63,785 nucleotides of DNA, filler included, from Bonamia ostreae (GCA_040357525.1; 13 parts of 13 records of this genome joined end to end with filler, not necessarily neighbours in it); one strand, 5' to 3'; shown: positions 1-62,000, counted from the first letter of the whole stretch. Notes: generated from the sequence alone by a model not told the origin. A program made the numbers and translations.

Positions 1-2038
1 TTTTATCTCTAAATCGCACGAATGCGATGGTAGCGAAAATCATTGCCACTTTATTTATCTTTTAAAACAAATTGATGTGTAAATGGAAAAATTTTTCTTA
101 AGGAAATCTACAACGTCAATATTTTCCGAAATATTTTTAGTCACTTCTTCATAAGCCATTTTGGTCCTATATTTTATCAAGCGCAAATTTACTTTAAACA
201 ATTCTTAATTGCAAAAAACTAAGAAGGTTTAGATTTGCAATAAATCCAAAAATCGATAAATTTTTGGAAAATAAGCCTCACTTCGTTATAAAAATCGATT
301 TTTACATATTTTTACGATAAAAAACTGAAAATTTTCCATTATTTTGAAAAAAATAGTTATTACAAAAGTTCAAATCTCTCAAAAATTTTGTGTAAAGAAT
401 TTACTCGTCACTGTTCGAACCAGTATTTGCTTTTTTCTCGTTTTTCCAACGAAAAACATTCTTTCAGCTCTTCACAATTAATTTTCGGTTCACTGAAAAT
501 AAAATTATTTGCAATTATTTTGTCATTTGATAAAATTTTACAAAAATCATCGCCCATTTCTTTGGCCGCGGCACCAACAATTTTTTCGTGCAATCTCTGC
601 AAAATCTTATGTTTGAATAAGAATCGAAACCGGGTTAAAACCAATTTTCACTTCACTTTTTATTTCACAACTATCCACAAATTCTTCCATTTTCAATAAC
701 TGTTCTTTTGTGACACTTTCAAATTTCTGGTCTCTCTTTGTCACCAATCTTTTATAAAATTTTAATCTAAAACTTGATATCTTCTCTGAACGGCAATTCG
801 TTCCAGACGAAATATCTTTCATTTCCGTTGATCCCCGGTGACAAGTATCCATACAATGGCATCGCTTTGTTCTGTTTGATGAGTCTTTCAGTTTAAATGA
901 TCGTTGCAACCTGACAATAGCGACCGAGTTAGTTTTGCGGCAAGCGCTCACAAATGCCGCCAGAAGCAAAACAGATCTCTCGTTTTCCGGTTGGGCGCAG
1001 ACATAATCAGAAGTGGACATTCTAAGGGGCAGCAAATCGATTCGGTCTCTTTTGACAAATCCCAAGAGACAAAATGATTTTTCCGTCTTCGATTCAAGTC
1101 CCTCTTCGTCAAAGACGGTAAAAGGGACGATGTCCTTTCCGAAAGAAAATGCTTTTATTTTGTCTTTGACAAAATAAGGCGAGTCGGGAGAGTCGTTTTT
1201 GATGACATTGTCTTCATCGAACAGACCGTAATAACGGGAAATGGTTTTTATCGCAGATTTGGTGTCGGCTCTTCGCCTTTTCGCGGGAGGCGCTCTTTCC
1301 ACCTTCGTTTTGCTGTAACAACATACTGAGATTTTTAAGGCGTTGCCGATGTTTAGGAAGCCTTTATATTTCGGTACCTTCAAAATTAGGTTTTTGGAAA
1401 ACCTTTTTTACAAAAATGGTTAAAATAATGGAATATTGTTCTTGAAATAAAAACGTGTTTAATCGATCGTTTCCGTTCGTTTTTAGCTTTGAAAATGGCG
1501 TCCCGAAACGTCGAAACTGATATGAATTTGTTTGCGATCGAATTGTAGAAATCGTTAAATTTTTGCGACAGCAATATAAACTCGACAAAGATTTTGTTTT
1601 CCGACAATGTATCGTTAATGTCAGAATTTCCAAAGTTTTCGTTGATTTTGCAGTTTGTTATGAAATGAATTTTAATGGTGTATTTTCTCTTCTTTATAAC
1701 GTTCTGAATTTCTTCAATTAAGTTTTTAAGAATATCAGTTTTTTGGGACTTCGACAAATCAGTTTTTAATTTTATTTCTTTAATTTTCTTTTTGTTTTTG
1801 TTTGGAAAATGGGAACTTTGAGGTCTTCTAGATCAAACTGTTGTTTCAATGGCGAGATATCAGTTAGTTCTCCTGAACTGCTGACGCCATAGATTCCGAA
1901 CATGTCCGTCTTCTTGTAAAATAAGAGTTTATTCATCGCATAGTTGGCTATATAATTTCGAGCTTTATCTAAAAGTCCGAAATCGTCGTTATTTGATAAT
2001 TCGTCGATAACTAAGACATCCGCAATTTTGTTGGTCAT
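1..2038 (-). CDS. KU80: Ku80 (vWA domain + Ku core), multi-exon, 3' end runs off the window
   Basis: N-terminal vWA-like VLVIDE...KLLFYKKTDMFGI; core YKGFLNIGNALKISVCCYSKT, KAFSFGKDIVPF, FCLLGFV, LAAFVSACRKTNSVAIVR; the 5' ORFs join through GT-AG introns. Confidence 0.85.
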
Positions 2039-2772: not shown

Positions 2773-3246
2773 ATGAACCAATCCGACGTACAAAGTTTTT
2801 AACGTAACCGGAAAGACTTGGCGAAAAATTTTCTCTCGAGTTTCTACGGAAAGTACGAAGAAGACCGCACCAGCTTGGACCAATTCTTCGTAACTTTTCA
2901 AAATTTTAGTCAAACCAGTCAATGGCGAGCATAGAAGGCACCCACGCGATGGGCAAAGCGAACATTAAAAACGCTTTCATCGTTTTGCTCACATTCCAAA
3001 CAAATTATATTAAAATCTCTAATATCGAAGAACCAAATAAAAGCGAACAAAATCCGACATCAAGTGACGACGTTCGATGCTCATCCTTTGCCAGATGGAG
3101 CCGTTTTTATAATGGTCACCGGGAAACTGAGGATCGACAACGACGCGAACGCTGTCAATTATTCGGAATCGTTTCTGCTCAAAAAAGATCCGAGCATCGG
3201 GAATTACTACATTCACAGCAATATTTTCAGGATAAATTATGGATGA
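2773..3246 (+). CDS. NTF2: Nuclear transport factor 2; introns 2795-2815 (21 nt), 2890-2909 (20 nt), 2982-3030 (49 nt)
   Basis: Spliced product MNQSDVQNLAKNFLSSFYGKYEEDRTSLDQFF...TTFDAHP...IMVTGKLRID...YYIHSNIFRINYG, with the typical NTF2 C-terminus. Confidence 0.9.
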
Positions 3247-3472: not shown

Positions 3473-4836
3473 ATGGCGTCGATAATTCCAAAATTGCCGT
3501 CAAATGTACAAAAGCTGCTTGGAATCGGCGGAGACAGCGACGACGAAAAAAAAGTTTTAAAACCGAATTTAGATCATTTCGAAAACAGAAGATTTGGTAG
3601 ACGAACTTAATCGATGCGAGTTAATGGTAGACCTCTACAAAAACCAGATCTACAAAAAATCCGACATTATTCAGGATAGAAAATCCGAAACTGTCGAAAA
3701 ACCGAGTAAATTTCATATTTTGTAAAGACGAAAAAACCGATTTCGATTTTGATAATTTCGGCGAAGACGAAAACGAAGAAAATGAAAATTTATTCGAATA
3801 CGATCAAATCCCCCAAAACTCACCAAAACTTTTCATTTCCGACGAAAACGTGGAAATGCAAATTTCAAAAGAAAAAGTCGAAAAAGCGTTGGAGTCGGTC
3901 AGGAAAAGTCTCTTCGGTTTGTCAAAATTTTCTGACAAATTTCCGTCTTTAGACAAAACCAAAAATTTGCAGAAACGTTTCGCTAAAATTTTAAACTCTT
4001 TAAATGACGAGAAAACGATTAAAAGCGATCTTATAAGTCCCATTAAAAACGGTTCGGACATTAAAAACTTTGAGCTCAAAACAGATAATGGGCAAAATGT
4101 TAAAGCGTTTTTAAGAGAAGTTTTTGATATCGAAGACGAAATCGATATCAAAAACGACCATTTTGTCAAAAATGACAAAACTGATTTTGACAAAGAATTG
4201 GAGAAGTCCGAAGTAGAATATAATGGGGAAAATGTTAAAAAGAAAGAAAAAGTGTCTGAAATTGACGTGAACAAGATTTTTGGGCCACCAAAAGAAAAAA
4301 CATCCGTCATTAAAAAACGGAGCTTTAAAGACGATTTTGTTGAGAAAAAGCGGTCTGAAATTTCCGAAGACTTAAATGACATGGCAGTTACTCTTAAAGA
4401 CACAGCCGTTAACTTTGGTCAAACAATTCTCGGAGATTTAACTGTTTTAATTTCTTGACTTATTTTCAGCTTAAACTTTACTATTATTGTTAACGGTTTT
4501 GCATAAATAACATTTAATGGCGTCGACTTAAAATCTGTTTTTTACAACTTTAAAGAACTTTAATAAACTGCTAAAAGCTCTAAATATCTATCGTTAATTT
4601 TAATAAATGTCCTAATTCTAAAAATGTCATTTGTAAAGAAACTTGAATCGATTGATAATATGTTTTCAGAGAACAAGGACAAAGTCGGCAACATGACCAA
4701 AGAATTACAGAAGGAACAAAGAATCGGAGGATACGCAGAATCGATTTTTTCTTATGCCATTTTGGTTATTGTTTTTGTGCTGACCTATTTTGTTATCAAA
4801 ACTTTTCCGACGGAAAAGAAACTAAACTTTACTTAG
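3473..4836 (+). CDS. USE1: USE1-like ER Qc-SNARE, multi-exon
   Basis: SNARE-like helix EISEDLNDMAVTLKDTAVNFGQTI...IDNMFSENKDKV and a C-terminal TM ending IKTFP. Confidence 0.65.
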
Positions 4837-5749: not shown

Positions 5750-6207
5750 TTATTTTAAGGGCACAAATCTAGAAGTCTTGCTCACGTTGGATTTGTTGTG
5801 CGCGACCATGTTATAAGTTAACGCGAACTCTCCTGTATAATGACCGATCATGTTCTGCCGGATTTCGAACTCTTTGAACTCCTTTCCGGTGTAGACAGCG
5901 ACGCGGGAGCTGATCATGTCGGGCGTGATCATGACGTTGCGCAAATGCGTTTTAACTGTTTTGATTTTGTTGTCTGTTCTCTTGGCCGCTGCGTGTTTTG
6001 CCTTCAAAAGCTTCTTCCGAAAAATGATTTCTCTGTTCTTCTTTCCTCTCTTAATTTTTCTTCGCATCCTGGCTGGAAGGAGCTCTTTAAACTCTTCTTT
6101 GGATGCGTCGATCAATTCAAGGATATCGACGCCGCGGTAGTAATATTTTCTGAAGCGCTTCCTCTCTGTTTTCTGTTTCATTATTTCAATAAAACCTGTG
6201 AAGACAT
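5750..6207 (-). CDS. RPS15: 40S ribosomal protein S15 (uS19); 23-nt intron 6173-6195
   Basis: FRKYYYRGVD, VKTHLRNVMITPDMI, MIGHYTGEFALTY, SRFVPLK; first exon ATG TCT TCA CAG. Confidence 0.96.
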
Positions 6208-6402
6208 AACCCTTCGATATTAATTAGCTTTATATAATTTAGCTTTTCAATTTTTATATGTAAGTTGTTTAATTTTTGTGTTTATAAAATAAATGTGAAG
6301 AATCAAACTATATCCGATAAATAAAAACATTAAAAATCTCATTGAATTGCAATTTTTTTATAGAATTGTTATAAAATTTAATTTGGCGAACAAATTAGTC
6401 GA

Positions 6403-7312
6403 TTAACTCAAATCACCCAAAACTCTTTTCGCTTCGTCTATCAAAACGATCGCCGATTTTACATCATCCAATCGCAATGCCTTTACGCTCTCATTTAGCA
6501 ATTCTTCGCCCTTCAAAATAGTGTTCATTCGCTGTCTCTTATTCTGTCCTTTATTTATCATATCTCCTATTTGTGTTTGTTTTCGCGGTTCTTTTTCATC
6601 AATATTGAACTGAAAATTTTCACTCAAATCATTTTCATTATTTTTCTTCGAAATTTGATTTGGTAGATTTTGCATAGTCTCATCGCTTTCATTATTTTCG
6701 TTTTGCCGGCTGTTCTCACTGAGTTTCAAATTTTCAATTGGAAGATGTTCTATTTTCTTAGTCAATTGAACGCATTTGAATTTGCAGAATTTTATCCTTT
6801 CTACTAGTTTTCGGTCGTCTATACGTTTTATCGAATTAACCTTCTCCGTCCATTTGTTTCAAGTTCCTCAATGTTTCCAGGATCAGTGAAGCGCTATAGA
6901 ATAGTTTCACAGTGTTTCTACAGATTGCTTTATAAACTTTGACAATTGGTCATTTTTTTCCTGTACGAACGCGTTTTCTATTTGAAGAATCGCGATTTTG
7001 GACATCTTTTGATAAATCAAATAGGAACAAAGTTTTATCGTTTAAATCAAACCTTTTCTTTGGCTTCTTCTTTTTTGCCTTTGTAGTCATTACTTTCCTT
7101 TTTTTGAAAATATAATCGGTTAAAACATTTTCGAGATATTGCAGATTTTTTACGATCAAGTTTTTCAAAATTGGTGGTTTCTCCTCAATGGTCATCGCTT
7201 GTTTGACTGCAGTCAATCTCATGTAATACGAGATTAGCGGTTCAGTTTGGCGTAGAGCATCTGACTTTGAAAAAAACTTTTGAACGCTTTTTACTGTTTT
7301 GCTTTTGTCCAT
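6403..7312 (-). CDS. VTA1: VTA1/LIP5 (ESCRT/Vps4 cofactor), multi-exon
   Basis: MIT-like N-terminus EPLISYYMRLTAVKQAM and VSL-like C-terminus SVKALRLDDVKSAIVLIDEA. Confidence 0.8.
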
Positions 7313-8028
7313 TTTTATGTCTTTCAATATATTTTATCAAATGATTAATAATTGCAAACTATCTATTTTTCGAAAACTATTTTTCTATTTTTCGAAAAAT
7401 TTTTAAAAAAATTTTCAATGTTTTTAGCCTTAAAAAAATTAATACTTTAAAAGCAATTTTTAAGTTTCGATCAAAAGAGTGCAAGATTTACAAATTTAAA
7501 TTCTATATATTTTTTAAATTTTTGTATAAACGCAAAGGACAAACATGTTAATTTGAAATATATTTAAAACATTGAACAATAAAATGATCAATATTTTCTT
7601 AAAAATTATTTGCGGCTGTTTAAGTCTTAATTATTTTATTATTTTTTTATTTAAAATGGGTTTAAATAAAAAGGACAGTTCTTCAATTTGTAAAAATAAA
7701 GAAACAATTGTAATAAATATATTTAAAAAGAATTTTATTAAAAATAAAAAATTGCAATTAGAAATGTTAATTAATATAAAAATTATTCCCTGGAATCACT
7801 ATTTTGGCATGAATAGGGAAAGGCTTCAAAAATAAGATTTTTCATTTAATGCATTAACTGTACTATTAATTGTTCTATTAAAATTAAAAAAGATGAAGGG
7901 ACCTGGTATACAAAACGAAAAAAATTACTCTAAATTTTGTAATATAAATTCTAAATTTTCTTAAATTATTTATGAAAATAAAACAGTTATTTTTAAGAAA
8001 ATTTTCGTTTTTAAACGAACAAAGTGAT

Positions 8029-9233
8029 TTAATCAGAAAAGTCAAAAATGTAAAGACCATTTTTGGTTAAAATTTTGTTGCCTTTCGAAATACCCGGTTT
8101 CGAACTGCTCGAATCGTCTGAACTGGATGAATATTCGTTTTGCCCAAACGATCTTTTTCCAACAGACAAAACCGCCAAGTTTTCAGACAATTTATTTAAA
8201 TCAATATCGTTAACGAATTCAAACGGCGTTCTAAAACATTTTTCGGGTTCTAAATCGTCTTATAAAACTAAAACTTGGGCATACTTCGGCTGCATAAAGA
8301 TCAAATTTTCTGATAATTCCATCGGCCGAAGAGGTAAAGAGATATTTGCCATCTGTGCTTTTGCAGAACCCCATTCGCTGATTTCCGATCGTGTGAACAG
8401 GGCGTTCGAACCAAGCCACTGGCTTCGCTGCAAACCTGCAGTCCCACATTAAAATTTCGCTTTGCTTTCTTGCCGATGACAACAGATAAGAGAAATCGTC
8501 CGTCATATCGACTTTCCAGATCCCGTTTCTGTTCGTGTCCCAATCAAAGTCGATCGTTGCCTTCCCGCTTTTTTCGTCGAAAATAAATGTTTTGCCTTTG
8601 TAGTCCCCCACAGCCCAAATTTTCCCTGAAGCATCCGCTGCCGCAATCGTCGAGATAGCGTTTTTTGCCAGCTGTATAAAAGAAAAATTTTTGCTAAAAT
8701 ATAACTTTTCCGTTTTGCGAAGGCAACTTTAATTTAATCGCTTTGTTTCCCGGTTCTGAAACCGAAAACTTGCTCATAAAGCCGCGATGGCCGCAGACGA
8801 ATTGGTCTCCAGCGGGAGAAAATCCAATCGAAAAGGCGGTTGCCGTTTCTTCGTTGGCATCAAATGTACTATCATTGAGTTTTACGAACCAATACGACGA
8901 TATTAGTTTCCCATTGAACGCGTCGAAGGCGTGGATCGGGCGCCCTCTCGAACACGAAAACAAAAGACAGGTTTCTGGATGCCTCGAACTCATCGCGGGA
9001 GACCAAGCCATATCGTATACCGAACCTTGTTCCGGCATTGTCAAAACTGGTTTTAAATCATTCGTGTTGTGCTCCTTTTTTCCCAGAAGCAGCGATTGGG
9101 GAGTTTCAAATACAAAAAGCTTTTTCTCTTCACTGAAAGTGGAAAAACAGAGTCCGTCCGGTGACCAGCAGCTGCGTTGTGGAAAGTTTGCTTTAAATTG
9201 ATCTTCTGATCTGCATTTGGGTGGCAGAGCCAT
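8029..9233 (-). CDS. WRAP53: WRAP53/TCAB1 WD40 protein (telomerase Cajal body protein)
   Basis: CWSPDGLC, VYDMAWSPAMSSRHPETC, RGRPIHAFDAFNGKLISSY, AFSIGFSPAG, TIGNQRMGF motifs. Confidence 0.85.
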
Positions 9234-10109
9234 TATACAGTTTTTCTATAAACAAAATTTCTTTAAACATTATTCAAAGATAAACAAAGAGTTATTTTGA
9301 AATTGAAAAACATTTATGGAAACTAACGTTGATTTATTTTTAATTTTACTTTAAATTTATTTCAGTATGTTGGAGTTGGTTTTTCGTACATTTTTAAATT
9401 CCAAGTTTTAAAGAATTCTGTAATTTTGTTTAATTCTTGAATTGTTTAATATTTTTAAATTTTTATAAAAAAAATAGATCTTTGTTTTTGTTTGCCATTG
9501 TTTAAAAATAATTTTATATTTTCTTAATATTATTTTTTCGTTTAAGTATAATAATTATTATAATTTTATTAAAAGAATTTCAAAGATCATCCATATTTCC
9601 GAAACTTTTAATGATGGATTAATTTTTAAATTAAAAATTATTCTCAAACTAAAATTGATTTTGCTTAATCAGTTTTTAGTAATTTTTAAATTATTTAAAT
9701 TACATTTGTTTATTTTGTTTTATTCTTTTTGAAAATTTTCTAGAATAAATAGAATAATGTTTATGTTTATTTTTGTTTTAAAATAAATTTTGTATTTTCT
9801 TAATTTTATTNNNNNNNNNNNNNNNNNNNNNNNNNNNNNNNNNNNNNNNNNNNNTTAATTAATTAANNNNNNNNNNNNNNNNNNNNNNNNNNNNNNNNNN
9901 NNNNNNNNNNTTCCTTTTAACACATAAATTTATTTCAGCCAAATTTTGCATTTAAAAATTTTACGCAATTAATTACTTAAGATGAATAAAATCTTTAAAG
10001 TACATTATTTTTTGATATTACAATATTTTTTCTATAATTCCATTTTAAAATTTTAATTTCTATTATCATTTTTGGTCATTTTGTTAAATTTATTAAAAAG
10101 AGCAAATTA

Positions 10110-10624
10110 TCAATTTAATAAAACGCGCGTTTCGTTTTCAATCTAAAATTCAAAAAATTAACTTGGCCGCTTTCTTCTGAAATCGTACTTAAACGTCGAT
10201 GAATGTTTTGTGGTTCAATTATATTTTTCCTTCTCTGAAAACATTTTGAACAAGAACACTTATCCAATGCACCAATAATAATAATTATAACAACAACAAT
10301 CATGAAAAAGGATATGAAAATAGCGAAATAGTTTAATTTGCAAACATAAAAATCAATCGAATTTAAGTCATCCACTTTTTTATAAACTCGGTCGCAAAAA
10401 AATTTTACTTTAACCTTTAATGGTTGTTTTTTGTTTTTAAAATACAGCTTCAATAGTGATTTACATGAAATTTCGAAAGTGAGATATTTATCAGAAACAT
10501 CGGTCACGTTATGTATCAACAATCCTGTTTTCTCTGGCAATTCACACGTGTTTTTGTGTGCTATGGCCAAAATAGACATGTTTGCAAAACACAAAAAATA
10601 TTTCATCATTTTAAATATTATCAT
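10110..10624 (-). CDS. Small type I membrane protein: signal peptide, 4-Cys ectodomain, TM, short tail; 20-nt intron near the 3' end
   Basis: Hydrophobic N-terminus, Cys spacing resembling a sushi/CCP domain, TM YFAIFISFFMIVVVIIIIIGAL. Confidence 0.65.
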
Positions 10625-11020
10625 TTTAGTATTTTGAAATTATAAAACTGTTCAATTTTCATTAAACTGTAATTTTAAAAATTCAAAAAAAACTAAACCG
10701 CAGTTGAAAGAGAAAATGGACAAATTTAAAAAAATAACTTCGAGACAGCGAAAAATGAATATTTAATTAAAAAAAACAGAAGAAAGAAGAAAAAATAATT
10801 ATTTATCAACAACAAAAGATTATTTTAGACCAAAAAATTTATCAAAAACAAAAGCGACTTTTTAACAATATTTTTAATGCAATTTTTGACTAAACAATTT
10901 ATTCGCAATTTTTGGAAAAAAATGACTAAAAACGAAATCAAAAAATAAATTATAAAAAAAAGAAAAATTACAAAAAAGCTAAATAATAAAGTTTGAAAAT
11001 TTTAGACTTTTACATTAAAA

Positions 11021-11296
11021 ATGGACATAAAATTTTCAGATGACTATTCAAAGAATAAATATTTTCTAATTGAAGTTGAAGAAAATTTTGATTTGAAAAA
11101 TCGAATCGATTTGGTTGAAAACGGCAATTCAGTTTTTCTTAAAAAAGGCGAAAATCTGTTTTTGAAATTTTCTAAAAACAAAATTTTTAGAATTGAAATG
11201 ACAAAACACGAAACTTCAAACGCAAATATGATATTAAAAAACAAAAGCGAGATTGTTGAAATAACAAATTCCTACTTTAGCGCCATTAAACAATAA
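11021..11296 (+). CDS. Short DCC1-like protein (N-terminal part only), probable in-frame 33-nt intron
   Basis: IKFSDDYSKNKYFLIEV...VFLKKGENLIEMTKHETSNANMIL resembles the Dcc1 N-terminus (YKLIQL...VLC...TSN). Confidence 0.4.
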   Translation: MDIKFSDDYSKNKYFLIEVEENFDLKNRIDLVENGNSVFLKKGENLFLKFSKNKIFRIEMTKHETSNANMILKNKSEIVEITNSYFSAIKQ

Positions 11297-11518
11297 ATTC
11301 AAATTTAGCAAATTATAAATTTAGCAATAGACATCGCAAAACATGCACAGAAAATCTAAATTCTAAAACAATAACTACCAAATAAACAAAAACACATCAA
11401 TATACACAAAATCCTTAACTAAAATTTTTTCACAAAGCTTATTAATTTTAACCATAATCAATATAACACAACTACATTTACTTTAAAGTTTTTCAATATA
11501 CTTACACGAGTAGCTTAA

Positions 11519-11969
11519 ATGGTTAATTTGTTTATTTTTTTAGAACGCGGGCATCGAGCTAAGCGAAAAAGCGATGGAAGATTTCAAACAACTTAAAAAG
11601 GCGAAAAATCAACATTTCATGATACTCGAGATCGACTCGAAAAAAGGTCAAATATATTCCAAGCACATGCAAAATAGCACTCAAGAGGAGCCAGAAGATG
11701 CTTTTGAGATTTTTGCTGAATATCTACTCGAAAACTTTGAGAAGAAGCCAGCTTATGTCGTCTTAGACTTCGATTTCGAGAAAAGCGGTGGAAAGAAAAA
11801 TAAACTCATTTTGGTATCTTGGGTTCCAGATGAATCGCCCCCGATGTCAAAAATGGTCTACGCGACAACAGCGACAAGTGCAAAAAATTCTCTTGTCGGA
11901 GTGCACAAATTGGTCCAAGTTAACGACGAAAAGTCGTTGTCGTATAAGAACTTTGTGTCCAAAATGTAG
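11519..11969 (+). CDS. COF1: Cofilin/ADF; ATG-only first coding exon, 22-nt intron 11522-11543
   Basis: MNAGIELSE..., PAYVVLDFDF, KLILVSWVPDESPPMSKMVYAT. Confidence 0.93.
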
Positions 11970-12124
11970 ATGTAGTAAAACGGCTTACGTCTTTTTCTAC
12001 AATTTTTATTTTTTTGTGATTTTTCGGTGAACAAATATTTAAGTTTGGAAATGACGTTTATAAAAGAGATTTGATAATAATTGGATTTTTTGATATAAAA
12101 AATTGTGGCGAGAAGGTTAATTTA

Positions 12125-50793: not shown

Positions 50794-51797
50794 TCACTCC
50801 ACAACCGCGTTCGGGTTGATAACCGGCAGCTCGCCCCCGTAGCAAACGACTGGGTCCATTTCCCCGCGCTTAAAGTACCGCGGAGTGCCGTCCTCGTCGA
50901 AGAACCCCCGCGGCGCCTCGAAACGCTGCTTCGACAGCGCCCCCAGAAACCTCCTCACTTTCCGCTTGCTCAGCGACTTGACCATGTTCGGCGGAAAGCA
51001 GTCTGCGCTCACGCTGTCGAGGCTGCTCTGCTTCATTTTGAGGATCTTGCGGTACTGCGACTCGATCTGCTCGCTCGGCGGCGACTGCACGTTGAAGTCG
51101 GGGCCCATGGCGATTTCCAGCGTGCTCGGCGAGTTCCCGAGGATGCGCGTCATCGGCGAGACCGGGATGCTGTTCGAGCTCGGGGAGACCGGCGACGCCG
51201 TGCCGCGCTGTTCTCCGAAGACGCCCGGCGGCACCTCGATTTCTGCGCGTGAGAAATGTAACTGTTTAGGAACGACTCTTCCGTCGCCGGGGACAGAATG
51301 GGGCTGAAGCTCGACGAGTAGAACATCGGGCTCTGGTTGCCGTAGCGGTTCAGGTAACTGGGGAAAGGGCTGTTCTGCGGCTCTGCGGCGCTCTCCTTCC
51401 GGGCGCCGAGCGTTCTGCCCGCGACGCGGCTGTGCAGCACCTCCCCGCGCAGCGTCTTCGCGCGCAGCGCCATCGCAGCGGCGACGCAGTTCTTCTCGGA
51501 GGCGAAGCGCAGCGTCCAGTTCTGCCCGAATTCGTTGAAGACGGAGAGGACGTCTGTTTTGCAGACCGTGGCTTCGTCGGCACTGTTCTGCGGCGACGGT
51601 TTGTCGGGGAAGAGCGCCAGGATTTCGGCTCGGTTCACGTCTTTGGGCAAGTCGCGCAGAATGAGTGCTGTTCTCTCGCCGGAGCTCAGCTCCTCTGCCG
51701 GTGTGGTCGCGGGGGAACGCGCTGTGAGACTGACCTTCAAATTTTGCAGCTGTTTCTGGATGTCAGATGCATTCTCAAAGTTCTTCGTAGTTGTCAT
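50794..51797 (-). CDS. LARP4-type RRM protein (no La motif seen); 20-nt intron at ~51243-51262; very GC-rich
   Basis: LILRDLP...EILALF...NWTLRFASEKNCVAAAMALRAKTLRGEVLHSRV resembles the LARP4 RRM. Confidence 0.65.
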
Positions 51798-51890
51798 TTT
51801 TGCAGCTTTAGAATTTTAAGAGGTTTAAATATAGAATTCTTTTAGCTTCGGGCTTGAATATATTGTTTATGAATGAGTTTACACTTATGT

Positions 51891-51959
51891 GAAGGGCGTA
51901 GTCGTTCGAGCAAAGAGCGTGCATTGGTGCATGTTTGGGTTCGAATCCCGGTGTCGTCG
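51891..51959 (+). pseudogene. tRNA-like degenerate element (B-box)
   Basis: T-arm GGGTTCGAATCCC and an anticodon-like hairpin CGTGC-ATTGGT-GCATG, but defective acceptor and D arms. Confidence 0.35.
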
Positions 51960-52239
51960 TTCTAAGTCAAAATTGATTCGGCGTTGTACCATTTTTTGTA
52001 AAATTGCGCCGTGGACCGAATTTTTTCAGGATCCCAATTTTTTTAAGACGCCTAAAAACTTCGGGTCAAATGTTGTTTTATAATGCAAAACATCGATGCT
52101 AAGCTTTTTCGTTGCAAAATATGTTCGTTACAATCTATCACTACGTCGTTACAAAAACTCGCTTTGCCAAAAGCGCAAAATTTATTTATCAGTGAAAATG
52201 ACTTGAGCACAAAATTTATTTAACATTTATTTTCAAAAG

Positions 52240-52954
52240 CTATTTTTTGTAAAGTTTGGCCAGCAAAATGTCAGCGACGATGACTAAAACCAAAATGCCG
52301 ATCATTATCCACAACTTCTTGTTCGTCGCCACCGCCAAAAGCATTCCCTTCGTCAGTCTAAAATCGCAGAACAAAACTTTGCAGACCGCTCCAACAGATT
52401 ATCTATTTCGTAAGCTTCGTCTTTCAGTCTTCTGATCTGTTCGGTTTGGCGCTCCAAAGAGCCGGCGATATCAATCGCGGTCTTAGTTCAAGTTGTTTAG
52501 AGAACCTCGTCGGTGCGAACCAAGACTTCTTTCGTGTTCGCAAGAGTTTCCAGCGTCTTGTCTTGCAAGTCGTACGCGTAGTTCGTTACTTGTTCGATTC
52601 CCTCATCTTTCATTTTCGCAAGTTCTACCGTTTTTGTAAAAACTTTGTTCCAATTCTTTGTGGTCTGCTTCGTATCTCGGGATGGTTTTCTGGAATTTGG
52701 CCAATTTCTGAAAATTTTTGTACAAACTTTTTTTGTTTCTTCGTCACCGTCCGATTTCAGTTCTGTTTTGAGGGACAGAGCGTCTTTTTTGGCGTTGCGT
52801 AGTTTTATTTTTATCTTTTTGGAATACTACAATATCAAAACAAAACTGTTAACATGAAATTGAAATCCCTGTTTTCAGAGCTTAAAACATTAAAGCTTTT
52901 TTCGACACTTCGAAGATTTTTCTCGATGTTAGTAACTAGCACTTCGATTTCCAT
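52240..52954 (-). CDS. Qb-type SNARE (VTI1/NPSN-like), multi-exon
   Basis: DIAGSLERQTEQIRRLKDEAYEIDNLLERS, then TNKKLWIMIGILVLVIVADILLAKL tail anchor. Confidence 0.7.
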
Positions 52955-53047
52955 TTTGGTCGCGCTTCCTTTTTAAATGTGTGTGATAAAGAAAATTAAT
53001 TTACTATAAAATAGTTAATTGGGTCGTATATAATATTTAGCATTTTT

Positions 53048-53505
53048 ATGATTCGCTGTTCAAAAGTATTCTTGCGTAATTTTGCATCTAATCACACAAA
53101 AACTATGCGCTCCGTTGCAGACTTTACGCAGTTTTACGACAAAACTGTCTTTATAATACAAGACAAAGTCGATTCGCCAGAATTCGACAGTTACAACATC
53201 GATGTCGATTTGTCAGTTTTAAATTATAAATTGGATAATTTTTTGTCAAAACTGCTTAATTCTCAAAGGGTGGAAATCTTTCCATCGTCATTGATCGCAA
53301 CAAGAACTTTCTGATAAACAAGCAGTTGCCAAAACGCCAATTGTGGTTTTCGTCTCCAGTGAGCGGCGCGCACCACTACGATTTAGACTTGGAAACAAAT
53401 CGCTGGCGATCTGATAGAGATGGCCATTTATTCCAGTCAATGTTGACTTCGGAACTTTCGGACTGTTTTGACGCCGCAGCTTTTGGTTTCAGCGATAAAT
53501 TTTGA
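53048..53505 (+). CDS. FXN: Frataxin
   Basis: Presequence-like N-terminus; FLINKQLPKRQLWFSSPVSGAHHYD...W...DG. Confidence 0.92.
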
Positions 53506-54153
53506 TATTTTTATTTTTTGTGATGGCGAAGAGCTGAAGCTACCTCTAGCTGTCCTATGGACATTCAAGAGCGGGAAGACGAGCAGATCCATCTTGATCC
53601 ATCTTGAGATAGTTTATTCGTGTTTTGAAGATGAATGTGTGTTTGTTGTCTTTATTTGTTATTTTTGGTATGTTCTCTTATTTGGACACTTCTCTTATTT
53701 ATTTGGTATCTATCAAATTTAAACACACGCAGTATCGATCTGAATTCATGACAAAAGAAAAAATCAAATTGTTTGGTATTGACATTTTTTAAACAAAGGT
53801 ATTTATTGTCTCAATACTCTTCGCTTAAATGCGTCGCTCGTCGATCTGCTCCTCGCATCACTGTTCGCTTCGCTTTCACCATGGCTATAGTTAGCATTTG
53901 GCGAGATCCATCATTTTTATTTTGGTGCATATTGTAACCGTTTCCTCACATATCAATGATTTTTTTTTAGTTTTATATATTTGATTTTATTTATTTTTTC
54001 TCTTTTTTATATTATTTTTNNNNNNNNNNNNNNNNNNNNNNNNNNNNNNNNNNNNNNNNNNNNTTAATTAATTAANNNNNNNNNNNNNNNNNNNNNNNNN
54101 NNNNNNNNNNNNNNNNNNNGCGATGACCAAAAATTATTATAAAATTTGAGCAT

Positions 54154-54945
54154 TTACGATTCAATTTGTAGCATTACATTCAATAACAATGTGTTGAAAA
54201 TTGACGATCGCATAAAAGAAACTCGGGTCTGCTCTATAGTAGATTTATCGGAATAATCTTTCAGATTAAGTGTAATCCAAAAATCATTTACCTGGATAGA
54301 TTCTTCATGCAACTTTTTAATAAAATTTCTCATTCCATCTGTAAATTGGTACCGAAAGATAACAAGCATATCTAAAACACCCAAAACTTTTAACAGAAGT
54401 TTATTTTTGTCATCATCAGAACAAAACACTTCCCCTAAAAAAAGAATAAATGCTCTTGAATCTTCAAGAGCATTTGGCACCATTTTATTCTGATCATTAA
54501 ATTCATTACAAAAATCGAAAACGGCATCTTTTCTTGCCAAAATCTCGTTTTTATCTTTTATAATTTGTTTCCAAAACAGTTTAGCCTTAACTTTTGAATC
54601 CCGGTCATACTTATACAATTCTTGCGCGTAACTAATCAGTTTATCCGCATTCTCGTGATCGTAAATGCTTTTTTGAGTCCATAATGTCATAAATGATTTT
54701 CGAGATTTCATCATCTCTATAAAATTTTTAGTTTTTTCGTTGTCAGAAAAAAGCCCAGAAAATTCCTTCTCTTCTTGTTTAGCAATTAAAGTCTTTCTAT
54801 CTTGAAGTAAAGGAATAGTTTCTTTTAATCCTTTATCGTTAAAATCCTCTTCCACAAATATATCTGCTCCTGTTTCTGTTTCGGGAAACGTAAATGCATA
54901 AGATGGCATATTTTCATCTGGTAATGTACTAACTTGTATTCCCAT
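54154..54945 (-). CDS. Intronless hypothetical protein (263 aa)
   Basis: Long clean ORF, no recognisable motif. Confidence 0.65.
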   Translation of the reverse strand: MGIQVSTLPDENMPSYAFTFPETETGADIFVEEDFNDKGLKETIPLLQDRKTLIAKQEEKEFSGLFSDNEKTKNFIEMMKSRKSFMTLWTQKSIYDHENADKLISYAQELYKYDRDSKVKAKLFWKQIIKDKNEILARKDAVFDFCNEFNDQNKMVPNALEDSRAFILFLGEVFCSDDDKNKLLLKVLGVLDMLVIFRYQFTDGMRNFIKKLHEESIQVNDFWITLNLKDYSDKSTIEQTRVSFMRSSIFNTLLLNVMLQIES

Positions 54946-55149
54946 TTTGGTTTGAATATCTATTTATATATAAATTTTCTTAAAGATGTAACAACAGTTG
55001 GTTTAGAAAATTAAAAATGGGAATTATATGCAATTTTTTGTAAAAAATATTTTACAAATGTGATTAAATTTGCACATACTGTGATCTAAAAACAAAAATA
55101 AAATTTAATCGAACAAGGCTTCTTTCAAAAGATTTCTTTTGGATCCTGA

Positions 55150-55590
55150 TGACATACCCCAAAATTAGCGAAATTTTTGTATCCCTCCAGCAATCCGAAA
55201 TTATAATCGATCCTCTTTCTATTCTTCTGCTAACAATATCTCTCAAAACATCTGATGACCGACAGTCGACCTTCTCCACAAAAAACTCTTTTGCTACATT
55301 TGGCTCCTACAATCCATTGAGTTTTTTATACGGTCTTTATTGTATTTACGTCGACTGGTAACCGATTCGTCAATTTCAACGATCCTATTTTCACCTCGAT
55401 TTTATTTTCTTTGTTTTCGTATTTAAATACAACGGTTTCTCTTAAAAATCGGCACCAATCAACAACAGTTTTTTTGTCGATTTCTATGTCTCTTGAAATA
55501 TCCTTCACAGAGCTATTTATGCTCCATTCGTACATCAAAAGTAATATCTTATCCAAGGGTAACTTTGACTTGGAAAATTACTATAATTTA
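55150..55590 (-). mobile_element. Frameshifted Merlin/IS1595 (ISXO2-like DDE) transposase pseudogene
   Basis: SKLPLDKILLLMYEW, KTVVDWCRFLRE, IVEIDESVTSRRKYNKDR, VDCRSSDVLRDIVSRRIERGSIIISDCWR, spread over different frames. Confidence 0.85.
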
Positions 55591-55774
55591 TATAAAAAAT
55601 GGTCATTTTTTGTACTCAGAAGGGTCGGTTTAGTGAGGGGGGGGGGGTGCTATTCTCCACTTTTACCTAAATTTATATATTCATGGATTAAATCCCTAAA
55701 TCTGCAACTCATAAGTCTCGTTATATCCTCAAATATACCAGAAATCGAAATATGTATATACCATAATTCGGAAA

Positions 55775-57548
55775 ATGGAATCTGAGTTCGTAATTTCAAA
55801 CAAAAATTTTAATTCCAAATATCGAATGGAAGAAAATATCGGGTAAAAATAAGACATTTTAAGACAACCTGGCCAGTTCGGGTTCGCCAAAAGATGTGTA
55901 AGTTTAAAAGATGGTACACATTTCGCAGCAAAAGTGATAGATAAGAACAAATTTTCTAATTTGAATAAGAAAAAAATTTTTTTTCAGCAGGTTAAATTTG
56001 CGATTAGATAAAAATTTAATCGAAACGGCAAATCTTCTTAAACGAAGCGTTGCCCACAATAAAACCGAAGAAATTTGTGTCACAATATAAAACAAACTCA
56101 TGTGCTCTTATAATAATAACAAAACGAAATTTAAAGCTGAAAAATGAAATTAACATAATGAAAACTCTCGACCACTCCAACGTAATAAAATATGTTGATT
56201 TCTTCGAAGACGATCATCAACTTTATATAGTAATGGAACTCTGCGAAGGCGGAGAACTTTTTGATCGAATTTTGGCGAAAGGAAGTTACTCAGAAAAAGA
56301 TGCCGCTTTTGTGCTGAAACAAGCCGTCGAAGGCATCAATTATCTTCATAACCAAAAAATTGCCCACTTGGACTTAAAACCGGATAACTTTTTGTTTGTG
56401 AACAAAGACGAAAAGTCGAAGCTCAAAATAATTGACTTCGGGATGTCTTCGGTTGTTGAAAAACACAAATATTTAAAAAAATTGGTGGGCACCCCTTATT
56501 ATGTTGCACCCGAAGTACTTAGAGGGCAGTACACCGAATCTTGCGACATTTGGAGTGTCGGCATCATCATGTTCGTTCTGCTGGTTTTTAAGCGTTAAAT
56601 TTTCATGACAAAAATGTTTATGGAAAGTGCTGAAGCAAAATTTTCCTTAATTGGCTTTTCAAAAGTATGGTTACCCCCCTTTCTACTCCGACCCAAACAA
56701 CCATAACTCGGAACAGAAAATATTCGAACAAATCAAAAAAGGGTTCAATCCTATCGTCAAAGACGATTATGGTCCTTGGTTTCCAAAATCAGTGCACTGC
56801 TCCGATTCTGCCAAAAATCTGATATCAAAGTTGCTAGACAAAGATCCCGTCGTTTATATGTCAATTTTAAAAAGAAAAGAATAACAGCAAAAGAAGCGTT
56901 GGAGCATTCATGGTTCTCGACAGCTGATGACAGAATGGTTGAGAGTTCGGTGGTATCTAAGATAATATCTTTTAGGAACACCTGTAAACTCAAAAATGCC
57001 TTTTTAAATTTCATGGTGAATAGTCTTGATGAAGACGAAATGAAAGACTTGACCGTTTTCTTGAATTTATGCAAAACAGGATGAATTTGAACAAATCGAT
57101 ACTAATAAAAACGGGAGAATAAGTTTCGCAGAGCTCAAAAGTGTTCTCAAAAGAAATAATTGGTTTTCCGATTCTTTTTTAAATTAAACCAATTTCCTAT
57201 TTTGGTAAAGCGAGATCGCAGAAGAAAAGATTTCTGATATAATGAAACACATGGATGAAGACAATGACGGCAGCATAAGTGTCAACGAATGGTGCATGGT
57301 CGCAATGAATAAGCGACTTCTAGAAAAAGAAGAGCGACTGATGCAGTTTTTATCCCAGCACAAAAAGTTTATTCAGAAAAATAGACGAAAACGGCGACGG
57401 AAAGTTGTCTAGAGTCGAACTGGGAAAGGTTCTTTTGCAGCTCAAACCAGATTTTGACATAAGAAAAGCAATTGAAGAGTTTGATTTGGACAAAGACGGT
57501 AACATTGATTATAAAGAATTTTCAGCGATATTCAAAACGATTATATAA
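55775..57548 (+). CDS. CDPK: Calcium-dependent protein kinase (kinase + 4 EF hands); introns include 55843-55863, 56852-56874, 57055-57079
   Basis: IGQPGQFG, HLDLKPDN, DFG, APE; EF hands DTNKNGRI, DEDNDGSI, DENGDGKL, DLDKDGNI. Confidence 0.95.
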
Positions 57549-58500: not shown

Positions 58501-59004
58501 ATCTAAAATTTTTTGTTTATGCAAATTATTTTTAAATATCGAATAATGATCATTTTTGTCTATTAAACGGCAAAAAAATAGGAAAGGATAGTGCCATGCA
58601 ATTTATAATGGGGTTTTCTGTTCGTTATAAACTCTGAGAAAGTTATATCTCTTGAATTAGTGTCCAAAAATAATTTTTTATCAAAATTTCCCATTTTGAA
58701 TTGTTGCGGGTTTTGTTGATAAAGTCAGTTATAATTGTTTTTTTTTCAAAGGAGGGGTGGCTTGCAGAAAATTTTGACGAAAATATTAATACAGAAACAC
58801 GATAATTATTTCCTATAAATTTGAGTTTCATTTTAAATGATTAGATTCAGTTTTAGTCAATTTTTCGACATTTTTGTCTTTTTTCGATATTTTTGTAAAC
58901 TTTTNNNNNNNNNNNNNNNNNNNNNNNNNNNNNNNNNNNNNNNNNNNNTTAATTAATTAANNNNNNNNNNNNNNNNNNNNNNNNNNNNNNNNNNNNNNNN
59001 NNNN

Positions 59005-62000
59005 AGAAGAGAACATATTAATGCCAAAAATGTTCATCGAAAGGACAATACGATCCTTCAATTTCTTTCTTAACAAAGAAATATCGATAATTTTGGCAAG
59101 AACAATGCGAAAAATTGTCGAAACAATAGTTTCGAAAAATGGCATTGCAATAAAACACTTTTCAATGCCAATCCTAAATTTTGCTAACGACATGTTGGCC
59201 AATATTGGCAAAAAATTTGAAATAACAGATATTTGCTCAATTTTGGATTTTGTGCAAAATTTTTTAAAAATTCTAAAATTTGGGAACGTTAAAATAAGTC
59301 CAAAAACTTTAAAACTGAAAAAATTGACAAGATTTTCATACGACGAAAATCTTTTTATTGCTAAAAAGGGAATTGAAATTCGCTTTTTAATCGCTGTTTT
59401 ACAACAAAATCCAATCATTTTGAGCACAATTTGGGTAAAATCGATTTTGAGTGATTTCTCAAAATTTGAAAATTTTGGGGACAAAAAATTTGCAAAAATA
59501 AAAAATTTGAGAAAATTAAGTTCAAATTTACAAGTTTTGGAAAAAATTTGCGATTTTGAGCTGAAAAACAAAAATTTTCAAAATTTTGATAAAAACGACG
59601 TTTCCTTGTTGTTTTCGATTGCTGTTTCCAAATATTTGTACCGTTTCAACAATCACTTCGTTGGTAACAGCAATAATACCAAAACATTGTCTTTAACAAT
59701 GATGTACCCTTTGCTATTGTTACAACTCTCAAAAAGTCTTTTTTCCATTTCAAAACTGGATTTGAGCATCGACCCCAAATTGCAAATCGAATTTAATTTC
59801 TTTTTGACAAAAAACTTTAAAAAATCGAAATTCGGTTGCAACAGACAGATTTTGTTGTTATCCATTCAATGGACTCGATTTTTGATCGTTGATGCGAATA
59901 TTTCCGATTTTAATATTACAAATTTCGATCACATCTTCGAAAACTTGTCGGATGTAGAAAATTGCTTCGATATCGTTGATTTGTGTTACCATGTTTTCAT
60001 TGAATAAGGACTTTATTTTATTGAATATGTAGATTGCTTTATTGAATTTTGTGAATTTTAAAGGCTTTGAAAAAAGATAAACGACTGATAACGAACGGAA
60101 AATTACTTAAACTTGTCAAAAAAATCTGGACTGAATTTCGGGGCGCAACAATCGAATCAAAATCTTTGTTACTACTTTTGAATCAAATTTCGTCTAAAAA
60201 TATTGAGCAAATTTTGCGTTTTATAAAAAAAATTTAAGACGATTTTCCAAAACCAAAATTAAAAAATAACATTTTGATGCCACAAAAAATGTTTTGTCGA
60301 GACAATGATTCGCCGCCATTAACAAAAAACGACGTAAAAACAATTTTGGAAATTATGGAAAATCCGAAAAAGGAATATTTTAAAAATGGCGGTAAAATCT
60401 CAAAAATGTCTAAAATATTATTAAACGATTTTGCAGAAAACAATTTTGGTGAGCAATTTTGTTATCTGCTTCAGATGTTGTCAAAGTACTTTGTTACCAA
60501 AAAACTTTCAAGTTACATTGGTAACCCCCAAAAAACGCTAAATTTTCTTAGGAAAATATGTCAACGTTTTTATATAAAATATTGTCCCAAAAACACTTTA
60601 TTGTTACAATACTTTGAAAAATTTGATAAACAAATTTAAAAACATGGCAACACTGTTATTTTAGGAAATGGGTTCGAAACCCGAAACAAGCATTTTTATT
60701 TTTTATTTTTGTTAATTAAAGAAACGGAAGAAAACAAACTGAAAAACTTTTATTCAAATTATTTTCTCAACAATTTTATGCAAATTGTACATACTAAAAT
60801 AGCAAAATTTAGTACAAACCCCAACTTTTTTCAATCGAACGCAAATAAGTGCCATAAATTTTTTTCCAGAATATTCTTCGTTTTGTTTGAAACAAGTTAT
60901 CGCAACCAAAATTACAGTGAAGCTTCTATTTTTGGTGAAAACTCGTTGCAAGTTTTGTTGGAACAGAAAAACAAAAAATCTGCAAATAATCTTTTGTTCA
61001 AACTTTGCGAATGTTATTACTTTCTAGAAACACCCGATTGTATTGGCGGTATTTTGGATTGGTACCAGTCAAACTTTAACGAAGATTTTTCGATTTTGTC
61101 GTATTGGAAATTGGCTTTAATAAGCGAATCCAAAAGACAATTTGAAGAAGCGATCGAAAACTTTACCAAAATCTTAAACCATTTTAAAGACAAAACTGAC
61201 CAAACTAACATTTTCTACAAAAACAAAGTTCTTCAGCACATTGAACATTGCTACAACCCCTTGCTTTTAGACAATCCAAACAATTCGTATGGCTACAATA
61301 ACAACAATGAAAAAAATGATAGCAATAAAGTGACTCAAAGTGACAACGAAAAAGGTAACAACAAATTGATAACATTAAAAAAGAGTTTAACAAAATAACT
61401 TCAAACAAACAAAAAATGGTCGAAAATTTGAAAAAATTTGGCGAATTAAATTTTTATGTCAAGTTTGACAAAAATATTGAGAATTTTGAGATTGGCGACA
61501 TAAAAAAAGAAATATTGATCAAAAATAAATTGCTTTTAGATAATTTGCGAAATGTCGAAAATTTTGACGTTTCTGATAACGAATTGGTCAATGAAATCAA
61601 ATTGCTAAATTTTATCTTAAAAAATAAACAAAAAGTAGTCAAAATGGCGTCAGAAAACAAAAATTTTGATATAAAAAAATTAAAACGATTTAATTTGGTC
61701 AATTATCGGAAATTTATGTCTAAAAATAAAAATTTCAAGTGCTCTAAAATAGCTGAAAATTTGGTGAATTTTGGTAACAATAAAATAAATTTTGGTAACG
61801 ACGAAATAAATTTTTCCGACAAAAATTCGATTGACAATATTTTCGACAAATTTTTGTTATCAAAAACTGTTTCAAATTTGGAAAAGGAAATAATTGAAAA
61901 AGACTTTTGTGAATCATTGTTACAACTACAAAAAATTGACGATTATAAAAATTGCTTTGAGATTGCAACAGATATTCCAAAAATAAAAGAAAACCAAAAA

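Follow-up and report, generated by a model that had tools for sequence, protein, structure and literature searches.

We analysed a single window of 63,785 nucleotides from Bonamia ostreae (Haplosporida, Ascetosporea, Rhizaria), a notifiable oyster pathogen, and examined the splice signals of the introns that interrupt its genes. Protein matches identify the window as nuclear DNA of this species, because the C-terminal exon of its actin gene (20360-20965, minus strand) is 100% identical, over the full length, to P0227, "Actin [Bonamia ostreae]" (NCBI, UniRef), and the reading frame of its RPS15 gene matches P0241 ("ribosomal protein S15 [Bonamia ostreae]") with 100% identity. The window is AT-rich, with a GC content per 2 kb of about 25-39% everywhere but in one block of 48%, and its reading frames use the standard genetic code and are divided into many short exons. 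The published assembly of B. ostreae comprises 12.2 Mb with an N50 of 1.4 kb and 33% GC, and the published annotation gives about two introns per mRNA and a mean coding sequence of 658 bp (PMC11069148).

Introns were located with a purpose-written dynamic-programming gene finder, which compared a 3-periodic coding model with a non-coding model, used ATG starts, stop codons and a bare GT..AG rule, and carried no donor or acceptor weights. Its first run strung neighbouring genes together and placed exons on the antisense strand; a length penalty and strand competition were then added. With strand competition on, this motif-blind procedure returned 48 introns, each between two retained exons. The list was then edited by hand. 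Six introns were dropped: four because they lay antisense or were doubtful, one because it extended across a masked gap and one because it merged two genuine introns of the TrxR gene. Eight were added, comprising three pieces of TrxR, the RPS15 intron, two CDPK introns that replaced a wrong intron of 160 nucleotides (nt), and two further CDPK introns. In 17 of the resulting 49 introns (Table 1) the boundaries are fixed by a public protein model, by continuity with homologues or by continuity of a Pfam profile, and we refer to these as tier 1. All 17 begin with GT and end with AG. The introns called by the gene finder provide no test of this rule, since GT..AG was imposed by the method; GC-AG and AT-AC introns would be missed.

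Excision of the introns restores a continuous homologous reading frame in TrxR, CDPK, RPS15 and actin. In RPS15, the intron comes after an upstream ATG and three more codons, and its excision yields MSSQ/KTERKRF, the exact start of P0241 (the slash marks the junction). The two counted actin junctions were compared with P0227 by reading. At the 5' end of actin (21735-21900, minus strand) the first intron is ambiguous and was left out of the counts. There, P0227 has a 25-residue N-terminal extension that is joined via an apparent GTCC donor, and an alternative first intron of 43 nt with a GTAAC donor would give MSDS/ALVVDNG, which more nearly resembles P0237, a relative with 92% identity.

With eight introns removed, the TrxR product aligns as one high-scoring segment pair (HSP), over residues 9-462, to P0001 (55% identity, E 3e-176), and again as one HSP to P0008 (54% identity, E 9e-172). 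The donors gttttgaaa, gttttctta, gtttaaaaa and gtttttgtt belong to the TrxR introns that start at 22370, 22611, 22786 and 22922. Reading the eighth intron as one of 14 or 65 nt was ruled out, as the alignment with homologues backs the 50 nt called by the gene finder. A ninth TrxR donor, GTTTT at 24586, leads into masked sequence and was left out of the counts; the C-terminal exon with the expected active-site tail was not found, the segment at 24586-24706 (plus strand) entering that masked sequence.

In the UFD1-like gene, positions 45-76 of the UFD1_N1 profile are followed by an exon of 46 amino acids and then by positions 24-73 of UFD1_N2. The CDPK gene (55826-57548, plus strand) has seven introns and eight exons, which form an open frame of 448 amino acids with a complete kinase; Pkinase profile coordinates run 10-45, 47-191 and 193-248 in successive exons, and four EF hands follow. 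The gene finder's 160-nt CDPK intron ending in GAG was wrong and corresponds to two introns flanking an EF-hand exon. This 83-nt exon, together with the 72-nt exon of TrxR, makes two small exons between tiny introns that the gene finder skipped, so tiny introns may be more numerous than our list indicates. CDPKs are regarded as a family of plants and alveolates, and a CDPK in a rhizarian is possibly worth a phylogeny.

The donor consensus in the window is lineage-specific and reads G-U-U-U-(U), with U strongly preferred at +3 and +4, weakly preferred at +5 and at background at +6. Across the 49 introns, T occurs at +3 in 44, at +4 in 35, at +5 in 27 and at +6 in 18; the corresponding tier-1 counts are 16/17, 14/17, 12/17 and 7/17. 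By class, 34 donors begin with GTTT (21 of them GTTTT), eight with GTTA, four with GTAA and three otherwise, while in tier 1 GTTT accounts for 14 (11 of them GTTTT), GTTA for two, GTAA for one and other donors for none. The pattern was present before hand editing: in the 48 motif-blind introns, T+3 was found in 41, T+4 in 35, T+5 in 25 and GTTT in 32. The donor signal is weak on its exon side, with G at -1 in 18/49 and A at -2 in 25/49. Information content is approximately 0.86 bit at +3 and 0.40 bit at +4, the RPS15 intron being one base out of register in this calculation.

Intron interiors contain 38.6% T and 37.4% A, and GTTT makes up 27% of 2,997 non-coding GT sites and 14% of 979 GT sites in exons. 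To provide a control that includes any preference of the method, the 48 introns were swapped for background-model sequence carrying GT and AG only, and the gene finder was rerun 12 times. The planted introns were recovered exactly in 72% of cases. Control donors had GTTT in 32% (29% as planted; 19/45 in the top replicate), T+3 in 55% and T+4 in 48%, and A at -3 of the acceptor in 38%. Against these rates, the binomial P values for the 49 introns are 9e-08 for GTTT, 1.5e-07 for T+3 and 7.6e-04 for T+4, and the value for GTTT in tier 1 is 2.8e-05. The original prediction, that most donors begin with GTTTT or GTTT and a minority with GTAA, is thus borne out above the planted-intron control. It had also named, as a result that would count against it, a frequency of T at +3 to +5 that does not exceed the intronic background; T lies clearly above that level at +3 and +4 and mildly above it at +5. 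The nine donors that it had listed (one in RPS15, two in actin, four in TrxR and two in CDPK) all lie at real exon-intron boundaries, as judged from the sequence, and the ends of its range, 6173 and 57079, are exact intron ends.

Could this pattern stem from wrong gene models, in which GTTT donors were chosen by the method or by eye and not by the cell? The boundaries are drawn from DNA sequence alone, and the skipped exons, chained genes and antisense calls of the gene finder, as well as the hand editing, speak for such an artefact. However, three introns coincide with independently made public protein models, the eight TrxR introns lead to a single HSP, and Pfam profile coordinates are continuous across five introns. 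The gene finder, moreover, has no donor model and adds about 3 percentage points of GTTT in the planted control. We regard an artefact as extremely unlikely.

At the 3' end, the 49 acceptors comprise 27 AAG, 13 TAG and nine CAG (nine, four and four in tier 1); before editing, the 48 introns had 28 AAG, 11 TAG, eight CAG and one GAG. A at -3 is found in 55% of the 49 introns, compared with 38% in the control (P 0.011), and in 9/17 of the tier-1 introns, which is not significant (P 0.15). The earlier claim of purine-rich acceptors is supported by the full list and falls short of significance in tier 1 taken alone. No polypyrimidine tract was found in the 22 introns of at least 40 nt: the pyrimidine fraction at -18 to -4 is 0.470 versus 0.513 in the interior, and the fraction of A at -10 to -3 is 0.511 versus 0.370. 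The missing tract lowers the typicality of these introns but not their membership of the U2 type, since several accepted U2-type systems lack one. K-mer and positional counts of the window introns gave no clear branch-point motif; one 20-nt intron, in the UFD1-like gene, contains a TACTAAC-like stretch. U12-type (minor) introns carry the donor /RTATCC and have a branch site resembling TCCTTAAC. The listed introns are not of this type, as none of the 49 donors begins with GTATCC (AT-AC introns were not searched for).

Intron lengths range from 19 to 572 nt and fall into two classes, a tight group of 19-26 nt (21/49) and a broad one of about 30-570 nt, with 28/49 introns being longer than 26 nt. 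Beyond the first four to five bases the intron sequences differ, and they have little in common besides GTTT. Lengths divisible by three are visibly scarce among the tiny introns; we do not claim this as a property of the genome, because the gene finder reads through stop-free in-frame introns, which biases the sample.

Composition separates introns from exons sharply, with 41.9% GC in exons and 24.0% in intron interiors. Within the 24.5 kb of exons, 427 pseudo-introns bounded by GT and AG have lengths of 19-26 nt, and 56 of these start with GTTT. Mean GC is 0.45 in the pseudo-introns and 0.27 in 23 real short introns, and a GC of 0.30 or less is found in 4/56 GTTT pseudo-introns versus 14/23 real short introns. 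Real and pseudo short introns thus differ mainly in GC, so composition and length carry much of the discrimination, as a correlation and not as a mechanism. The alternative raised at the outset, recognition via length and AU content, gains correlational support from this contrast, from the GC drop at intron boundaries and from the abundance of tiny introns. Likewise, the phrase "unusual splicing code" is apt as a description of the donor and acceptor counts, and the machinery that would read them is a matter of interpretation.

We propose that the introns would be ordinary U2-type spliceosomal introns whose 5' splice site may be read mainly on docking to the invariant ACAGA box of U6 small nuclear RNA (snRNA). 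Donor positions +2 to +6 are the pairing partners of the ACAGA box, which accommodates GUUUGU (10.1101/2022.06.08.495308). In U6 that is free of N6-methyladenosine, the central A of the box makes a Watson-Crick pair with U+4 (10.1101/2022.04.05.487178), and Cyanidioschyzon merolae splices without U1 and shows extended complementarity of U6 to the 5' splice site (PMC10158995). In B. ostreae, U+2 would pair with A and U+3 would wobble with G, while the central A, which would need to be unmethylated, would be the Watson-Crick partner of U+4. Similar reasoning has been put forward for +4U in yeast and for GUUUGU in Entamoeba. Since three base pairs are too few for specificity, the remainder would come from intron definition, through the sharp drop from 42% to 24% GC and the very short length. 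The 3' end would be the first usable AG shortly behind the branch point, chosen without pyrimidine-tract binding of the U2AF65 type. A U1 with a canonical 5' end would add little to donor recognition, and the U1 of B. ostreae may have been altered or lost, as apparently happened in the related mikrocytids. From our analysis, this U6-centred reading of the donor, helped by the AT-richness and shortness of introns, is the one we tentatively place first, with somewhat less than even confidence; a co-evolved U1 ranks second and a protein-based or compositional origin third, and the first two are not mutually exclusive. In its furthest form, B. ostreae would have largely abandoned U1-type donor recognition (U1 being absent or its 5' end rewritten) in favour of a three-base U run on U6 ACAGA and of AT-rich, very short introns, while keeping many introns per gene; we see this as possible but rather doubtful. 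No snRNA gene was found in the window with Rfam, either at the gathering threshold or at E<=5.

The donors bear directly on U1. Most of them would meet the canonical U1 5' end (ACUUAC) with U-U mismatches at +3/+4, leaving about two pairs. In Entamoeba, U1 itself has changed, and by analogy the 5' end of U1 in B. ostreae might carry A opposite +3/+4 and perhaps +5, so that U1 would still be the primary reader of GUUU(U), with which U6 pairing would be compatible. A co-evolved U1, and with it the compensatory change in U1 or U6 suggested at the outset, gains plausibility from the mismatches, which would affect 35-44 of the 49 donors, and from precedent: both Entamoeba (GUUUGUU, U1 AACAAAC) and the intron-rich Mastigamoeba (GUACGU, U1 ACGUAC) show that such co-evolution happens (10.1101/2022.06.08.495308). 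Furthermore, losses of RNA-splicing gene clusters were assigned to the branch of paramyxids and mikrocytids and not to that of Bonamia (PMC11069148), so a fuller spliceosome is expected in B. ostreae. On the other hand, the consensus is far looser than that of Entamoeba (GTTT 69% versus GUUUGU 88-90%), canonical U1 has been kept in most lineages with a pyrimidine at +4, including yeasts, Giardia, Thecamonas and Micromonas (10.1101/2022.06.08.495308), and no U1 was identified in the related mikrocytids (PMC10245619). Taken together, we consider a co-evolved U1 plausible but rather unlikely.

Several observations weigh against the U6-centred reading. All counts come from one window of 64 kb with about 25 genes, and the 49-intron list was in part edited by hand after the pattern had already been seen, with one added row later replaced by hand. 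Fifteen of the 49 donors do not begin with GTTT. G at +5, which would pair with the C of ACAGA, is found in four of 49, so the proposed U6 helix has just three base pairs, one of them a wobble, and +6 is no different from background. The sole wording on intron type in the accessible portions of the genome paper is that B. ostreae "carries canonical introns" (PMC11069148). In addition, exons do not avoid GTTT: when synonymous codons were shuffled in 23.9 kb of exon sequence to obtain expected counts, GTTT was observed 127 times versus 104.5 expected (z +2.9) and GTTTT 61 times versus 37.4 expected (z +4.4), and all NTTTT words are over-represented, with ratios of 1.33-1.66. By comparison with such shuffles, TTTT was observed 304 times versus 202 expected (z +8.3), and runs of A were not over-represented. 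Part of the T enrichment at donors could perhaps be a general preference for T runs. The test for avoidance of GTTT in these exons was thus negative, and the motif alone is insufficient to mark a donor.

These exon counts also bear on a further alternative, in which canonical snRNAs do not recognise the U run by base pairing. The run would then be either the site, beside the donor, of a protein that binds U-rich elements (TIA-1/Nam8/RBP45-like) or the product of a mutational or compositional bias towards T runs at intron starts, splicing being guided by GU, AG, shortness and AT-richness. The excess of NTTTT words even in exons (1.3-1.7 times expectation), the substantial share of GTTT among non-coding GT sites, the lack of avoidance in exons and the GC contrast between real and pseudo short introns are all consistent with it, and in plants and yeast U-rich elements are known to act in the choice of 5' splice sites (10.1101/2022.08.12.503727). 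However, the donor T is position-specific, falling from 90% at +3 to 71% at +4 and 55% at +5 before it reaches background, which is too sharp for drift or a loose protein site, and GTTT at 69% exceeds the 32% of a control that already includes the T-run bias. We therefore regard this alternative as improbable.

Among known systems, the donors of Entamoeba are the closest case. Bonamia shares with them U at +3/+4 in place of the usual purines, AT-rich introns and a donor that suits U6 ACAGA better than canonical U1 (10.1101/2022.06.08.495308). Entamoeba is intron-poor, and its donors are nearly invariant, with GUUUGU in 88-90%, GUUUGN in 97-98% and U+7 in 78-83% (10.1101/2022.06.08.495308). Bonamia, in contrast, shows no such near-invariance (GTTT 34/49, G+5 4/49, T+6 18/49), and it has intron-rich genes (at least eight introns in TrxR, seven in CDPK) and many introns of 19-26 nt. 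Yeast-type GUAUGU donors resemble those of Bonamia in their degenerate exon side and in a strong U+4 capable of Watson-Crick pairing with the central A of ACAGA; yeast, however, keeps A+3 and G+5, whereas Bonamia has U+3 in 44/49 (10.1101/2022.04.05.487178). C. merolae sets a precedent for splicing without U1, its donor being recognised by extended pairing with U6 (and U5), but it has very few introns and pairs six of seven positions, while Bonamia would pair at most three (PMC10158995).

With regard to length, the mikrocytids Mikrocytos and Paramikrocytos are also members of Ascetosporea with AT-rich genomes and introns at the short extreme (PMC10245619). Their spliceosome is reported to be reduced, the snRNAs found being U2, U4 and U6 only, and their introns are few (224), all of 16 or 17 nt and highly conserved in sequence (PMC10245619). 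Compared by length and conservation, Bonamia differs in having both a 19-26 nt class and introns up to about 570 nt, with little common sequence. The nucleomorphs of chlorarachniophytes (18-21 nt) and heterotrich ciliates (15-16 nt) share with Bonamia a narrow class of GT-AG introns of about 20 nt, which leaves no room for a pyrimidine tract (cited in PMC10245619); these genomes contain essentially the tiny class only, whereas more than half of the Bonamia introns listed here are longer.

In the searchable literature, supplements aside, we found no description of these splice signals in Bonamia beyond the "canonical introns" wording in the accessible part of the genome paper (PMC11069148), and a rhizarian genome paper from 2026 makes no mention of Bonamia. 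Public gene models already hold such introns; therefore the data exist even if the pattern is undescribed. A 5' splice-site consensus that has been rewritten throughout a lineage is rare and has so far been tied mostly to intron-poor genomes, such as those of Entamoeba, yeasts and Giardia (10.1101/2022.06.08.495308). A +3U/+4U consensus in genes with seven to nine introns each would offer a test of whether co-evolution of snRNAs and splice sites requires prior intron loss. The 19-26 nt class beside longer introns suggests a route to the mikrocytid end point of 16-17 nt introns and a reduced spliceosome. If U1-type recognition has indeed been abandoned, Bonamia would link, as a living intermediate, the normal rhizarian spliceosome to the minimal mikrocytid one, and it would be a second, independent and intron-rich test case of snRNA/splice-site co-evolution.

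The pattern matters in practice as well. Standard aligners and gene predictors easily overlook 19-26 nt introns that start with GTTT and end with AAG, and the intron numbers of TrxR (at least eight) and CDPK (seven) stand against a published figure of about two per mRNA (PMC11069148). Because tiny introns are so easily missed, and given the published intron number, coding-sequence length and N50, the gene models of this pathogen may be systematically truncated.

Table 1. Introns and further features of the window (positions counted from its first letter; lower-case letters give the donor named in the original prediction; slashes mark exon junctions)
Feature	Position	Strand	Length (nt)	Donor...acceptor	Basis or remark
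Ku-like gene intron	885..910	-	26	GTTGC...AAG	Gene finder only
Intron	2982..3030	+	49	GTTTT...AAG	Gene finder only
Intron	3554..3572	+	19	GTTTT...TAG	Gene finder only
Intron	3706..3727	+	22	GTAAA...AAG	Gene finder only
Intron	4444..4638	+	195	GTTTT...AAG	Gene finder only
RPS15 intron	6173..6195	-	23	GTTTT...CAG (gttttattg)	Tier 1
Intron	6819..6840	-	22	GTTAA...TAG	Gene finder only
Intron	6918..7052	-	135	GTTTG...TAG	Gene finder only
WD40 gene intron	8672..8705	-	34	GTTAT...CAG	Gene finder only
Intron	15916..15959	+	44	GTTAT...AAG	Gene finder only
Intron	16097..16122	+	26	GTTTC...AAG	Gene finder only
Intron	17779..17803	-	25	GTAAT...AAG	Gene finder only
Actin intron	20968..21027	-	60	GTTTT...AAG (gtttttaaa)	Tier 1, junction YA-L-PHAI as in P0227
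Actin intron	21152..21365	-	214	GTTTT...TAG (gtttttatg)	Tier 1, junction FNA/PAMYV as in P0227
TrxR intron 1	22370..22392	+	23	GTTTT...TAG	Tier 1 by list; joins ATG to FAD-binding exon, upstream of aligned residues
TrxR intron 2	22611..22635	+	25	GTTTT...CAG	Tier 1, single HSP 9-462 to P0001, P0008
TrxR intron 3	22786..22805	+	20	GTTTA...TAG	Tier 1
TrxR intron 4	22922..22940	+	19	GTTTT...TAG	Tier 1; following 72-nt exon restored from homologue alignment
TrxR intron 5	23013..23166	+	154	GTTAT...AAG	Tier 1
TrxR intron 6	23576..24101	+	526	GTTTT...AAG	Tier 1; includes 100-N gap and 76-nt tandem repeats
TrxR intron 7	24183..24204	+	22	GTAAA...AAG	Tier 1; minority GTAA class
TrxR intron 8	24310..24359	+	50	GTTTC...AAG	Tier 1; homologues NIE/VYLSSF
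RCC1-like gene intron	25417..25851	-	435	GTTTT...AAG	Gene finder only
Intron	26642..26705	+	64	GTTAA...CAG	Gene finder only
Intron	26886..27041	+	156	GTTTG...TAG	Gene finder only
RRM protein gene intron	27287..27508	+	222	GTTTC...AAG	Gene finder only
RRM protein gene intron	27988..28261	+	274	GTTTT...AAG	Gene finder only
RRM protein gene intron	28398..28506	+	109	GTTAT...AAG	Gene finder only
UFD1-like gene intron	31637..31658	-	22	GTTTG...TAG	Gene finder only
UFD1-like gene intron	31771..31792	-	22	GTTTC...CAG	Gene finder only
UFD1-like gene intron	32027..32045	-	19	GTTTC...CAG	Tier 1
UFD1-like gene intron	32186..32205	-	20	GTTTT...AAG	Tier 1; TACTAAC-like stretch inside
Intron	32308..32879	-	572	GTTTA...AAG	Gene finder only; upstream exon without Pfam match
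Intron	41919..41993	+	75	GTTTA...TAG	Gene finder only
FAF1/UBX-like gene intron	45363..45401	-	39	GTTTT...TAG	Gene finder only
FAF1/UBX-like gene intron	46185..46212	-	28	GTTTT...AAG	Gene finder only
Intron	47382..47904	+	523	GTTTT...AAG	Gene finder only
Intron	48071..48495	+	425	GTTTA...TAG	Gene finder only
Intron in GC-rich gene	51243..51262	-	20	GTTAC...CAG	Gene finder only
Intron	52358..52386	-	29	GTCTG...TAG	Gene finder only
Intron	52482..52505	-	24	GTTCT...AAG	Gene finder only
Frataxin-like gene intron	53216..53268	+	53	GTTTT...AAG	Gene finder only
CDPK intron 1	55843..55863	+	21	GTAAA...AAG	Open frame only, hand-added
CDPK intron 2	55991..56136	+	146	GTTAA...AAG	Tier 1, Pkinase profile 10-45 then 47-191
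CDPK intron 3	56584..56665	+	82	GTTTT...AAG	Tier 1, Pkinase profile 191 then 193
CDPK intron 4	56852..56874	+	23	GTTTA...AAG (gtttatatg)	Gene finder and open frame of 448-residue model
CDPK intron 5	57055..57079	+	25	GTTTT...CAG (gttttcttg)	Tier 1, exposes 83-nt EF-hand exon (E 4e-08)
CDPK intron 6	57163..57210	+	48	GTTTT...AAG	Tier 1, EF hand 1 joined in frame to EF hand 2
CDPK intron 7	57346..57376	+	31	GTTTT...CAG	Gene finder and open frame
SMG1-like gene	about 59000-63785, e.g. 60640-61395	+			Pfam PF15785
Minisatellite	12221-12569				Example
Minisatellite	19436-19683				Example
Minisatellite	21893-22012				Example
Minisatellite	23622-23819				Example
Minisatellite	34533-34760				Example
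Minisatellite	44749-45180				Example
Minisatellite	48750-49127				Example
Minisatellite	62426-62612				Example

Two genes of the window touch on RNA processing. The RRM protein gene (26506-29436, plus strand; RRM_1 E 1.9e-18) encodes a long tail rich in Arg, Ser, Tyr and Asn and resembles a splicing factor of the SR type. A long, AT-rich, multi-exon gene has a Pfam match to SMG1 (28.2 bits versus a cut-off of 27, E 8.5e-07); as a candidate kinase of nonsense-mediated decay, it bears on the level of error-prone splicing that could be tolerated. Directly downstream of the H2B gene (16702-17076, minus strand), positioned and oriented as expected, lies a weak match to the histone 3' untranslated region stem-loop RF00032 (16649-16693, minus strand; 24.5 bits versus a gathering threshold of 34, E 0.016).

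AT-rich minisatellites with periods of 23-133 nt are numerous in both intergenic and intronic sequence, and several adjoin assembly gaps of 100 N. Finally, a GC-rich island at about 49900-52000, on both strands, has 48% GC versus about 28% in its flanks. Its open reading frames at 50794-51797 (minus strand) have a very high coding score and no Pfam match, and there are long open frames on the opposite strand too; the gene in this island carries a 20-nt intron whose 3' half is GC-rich.

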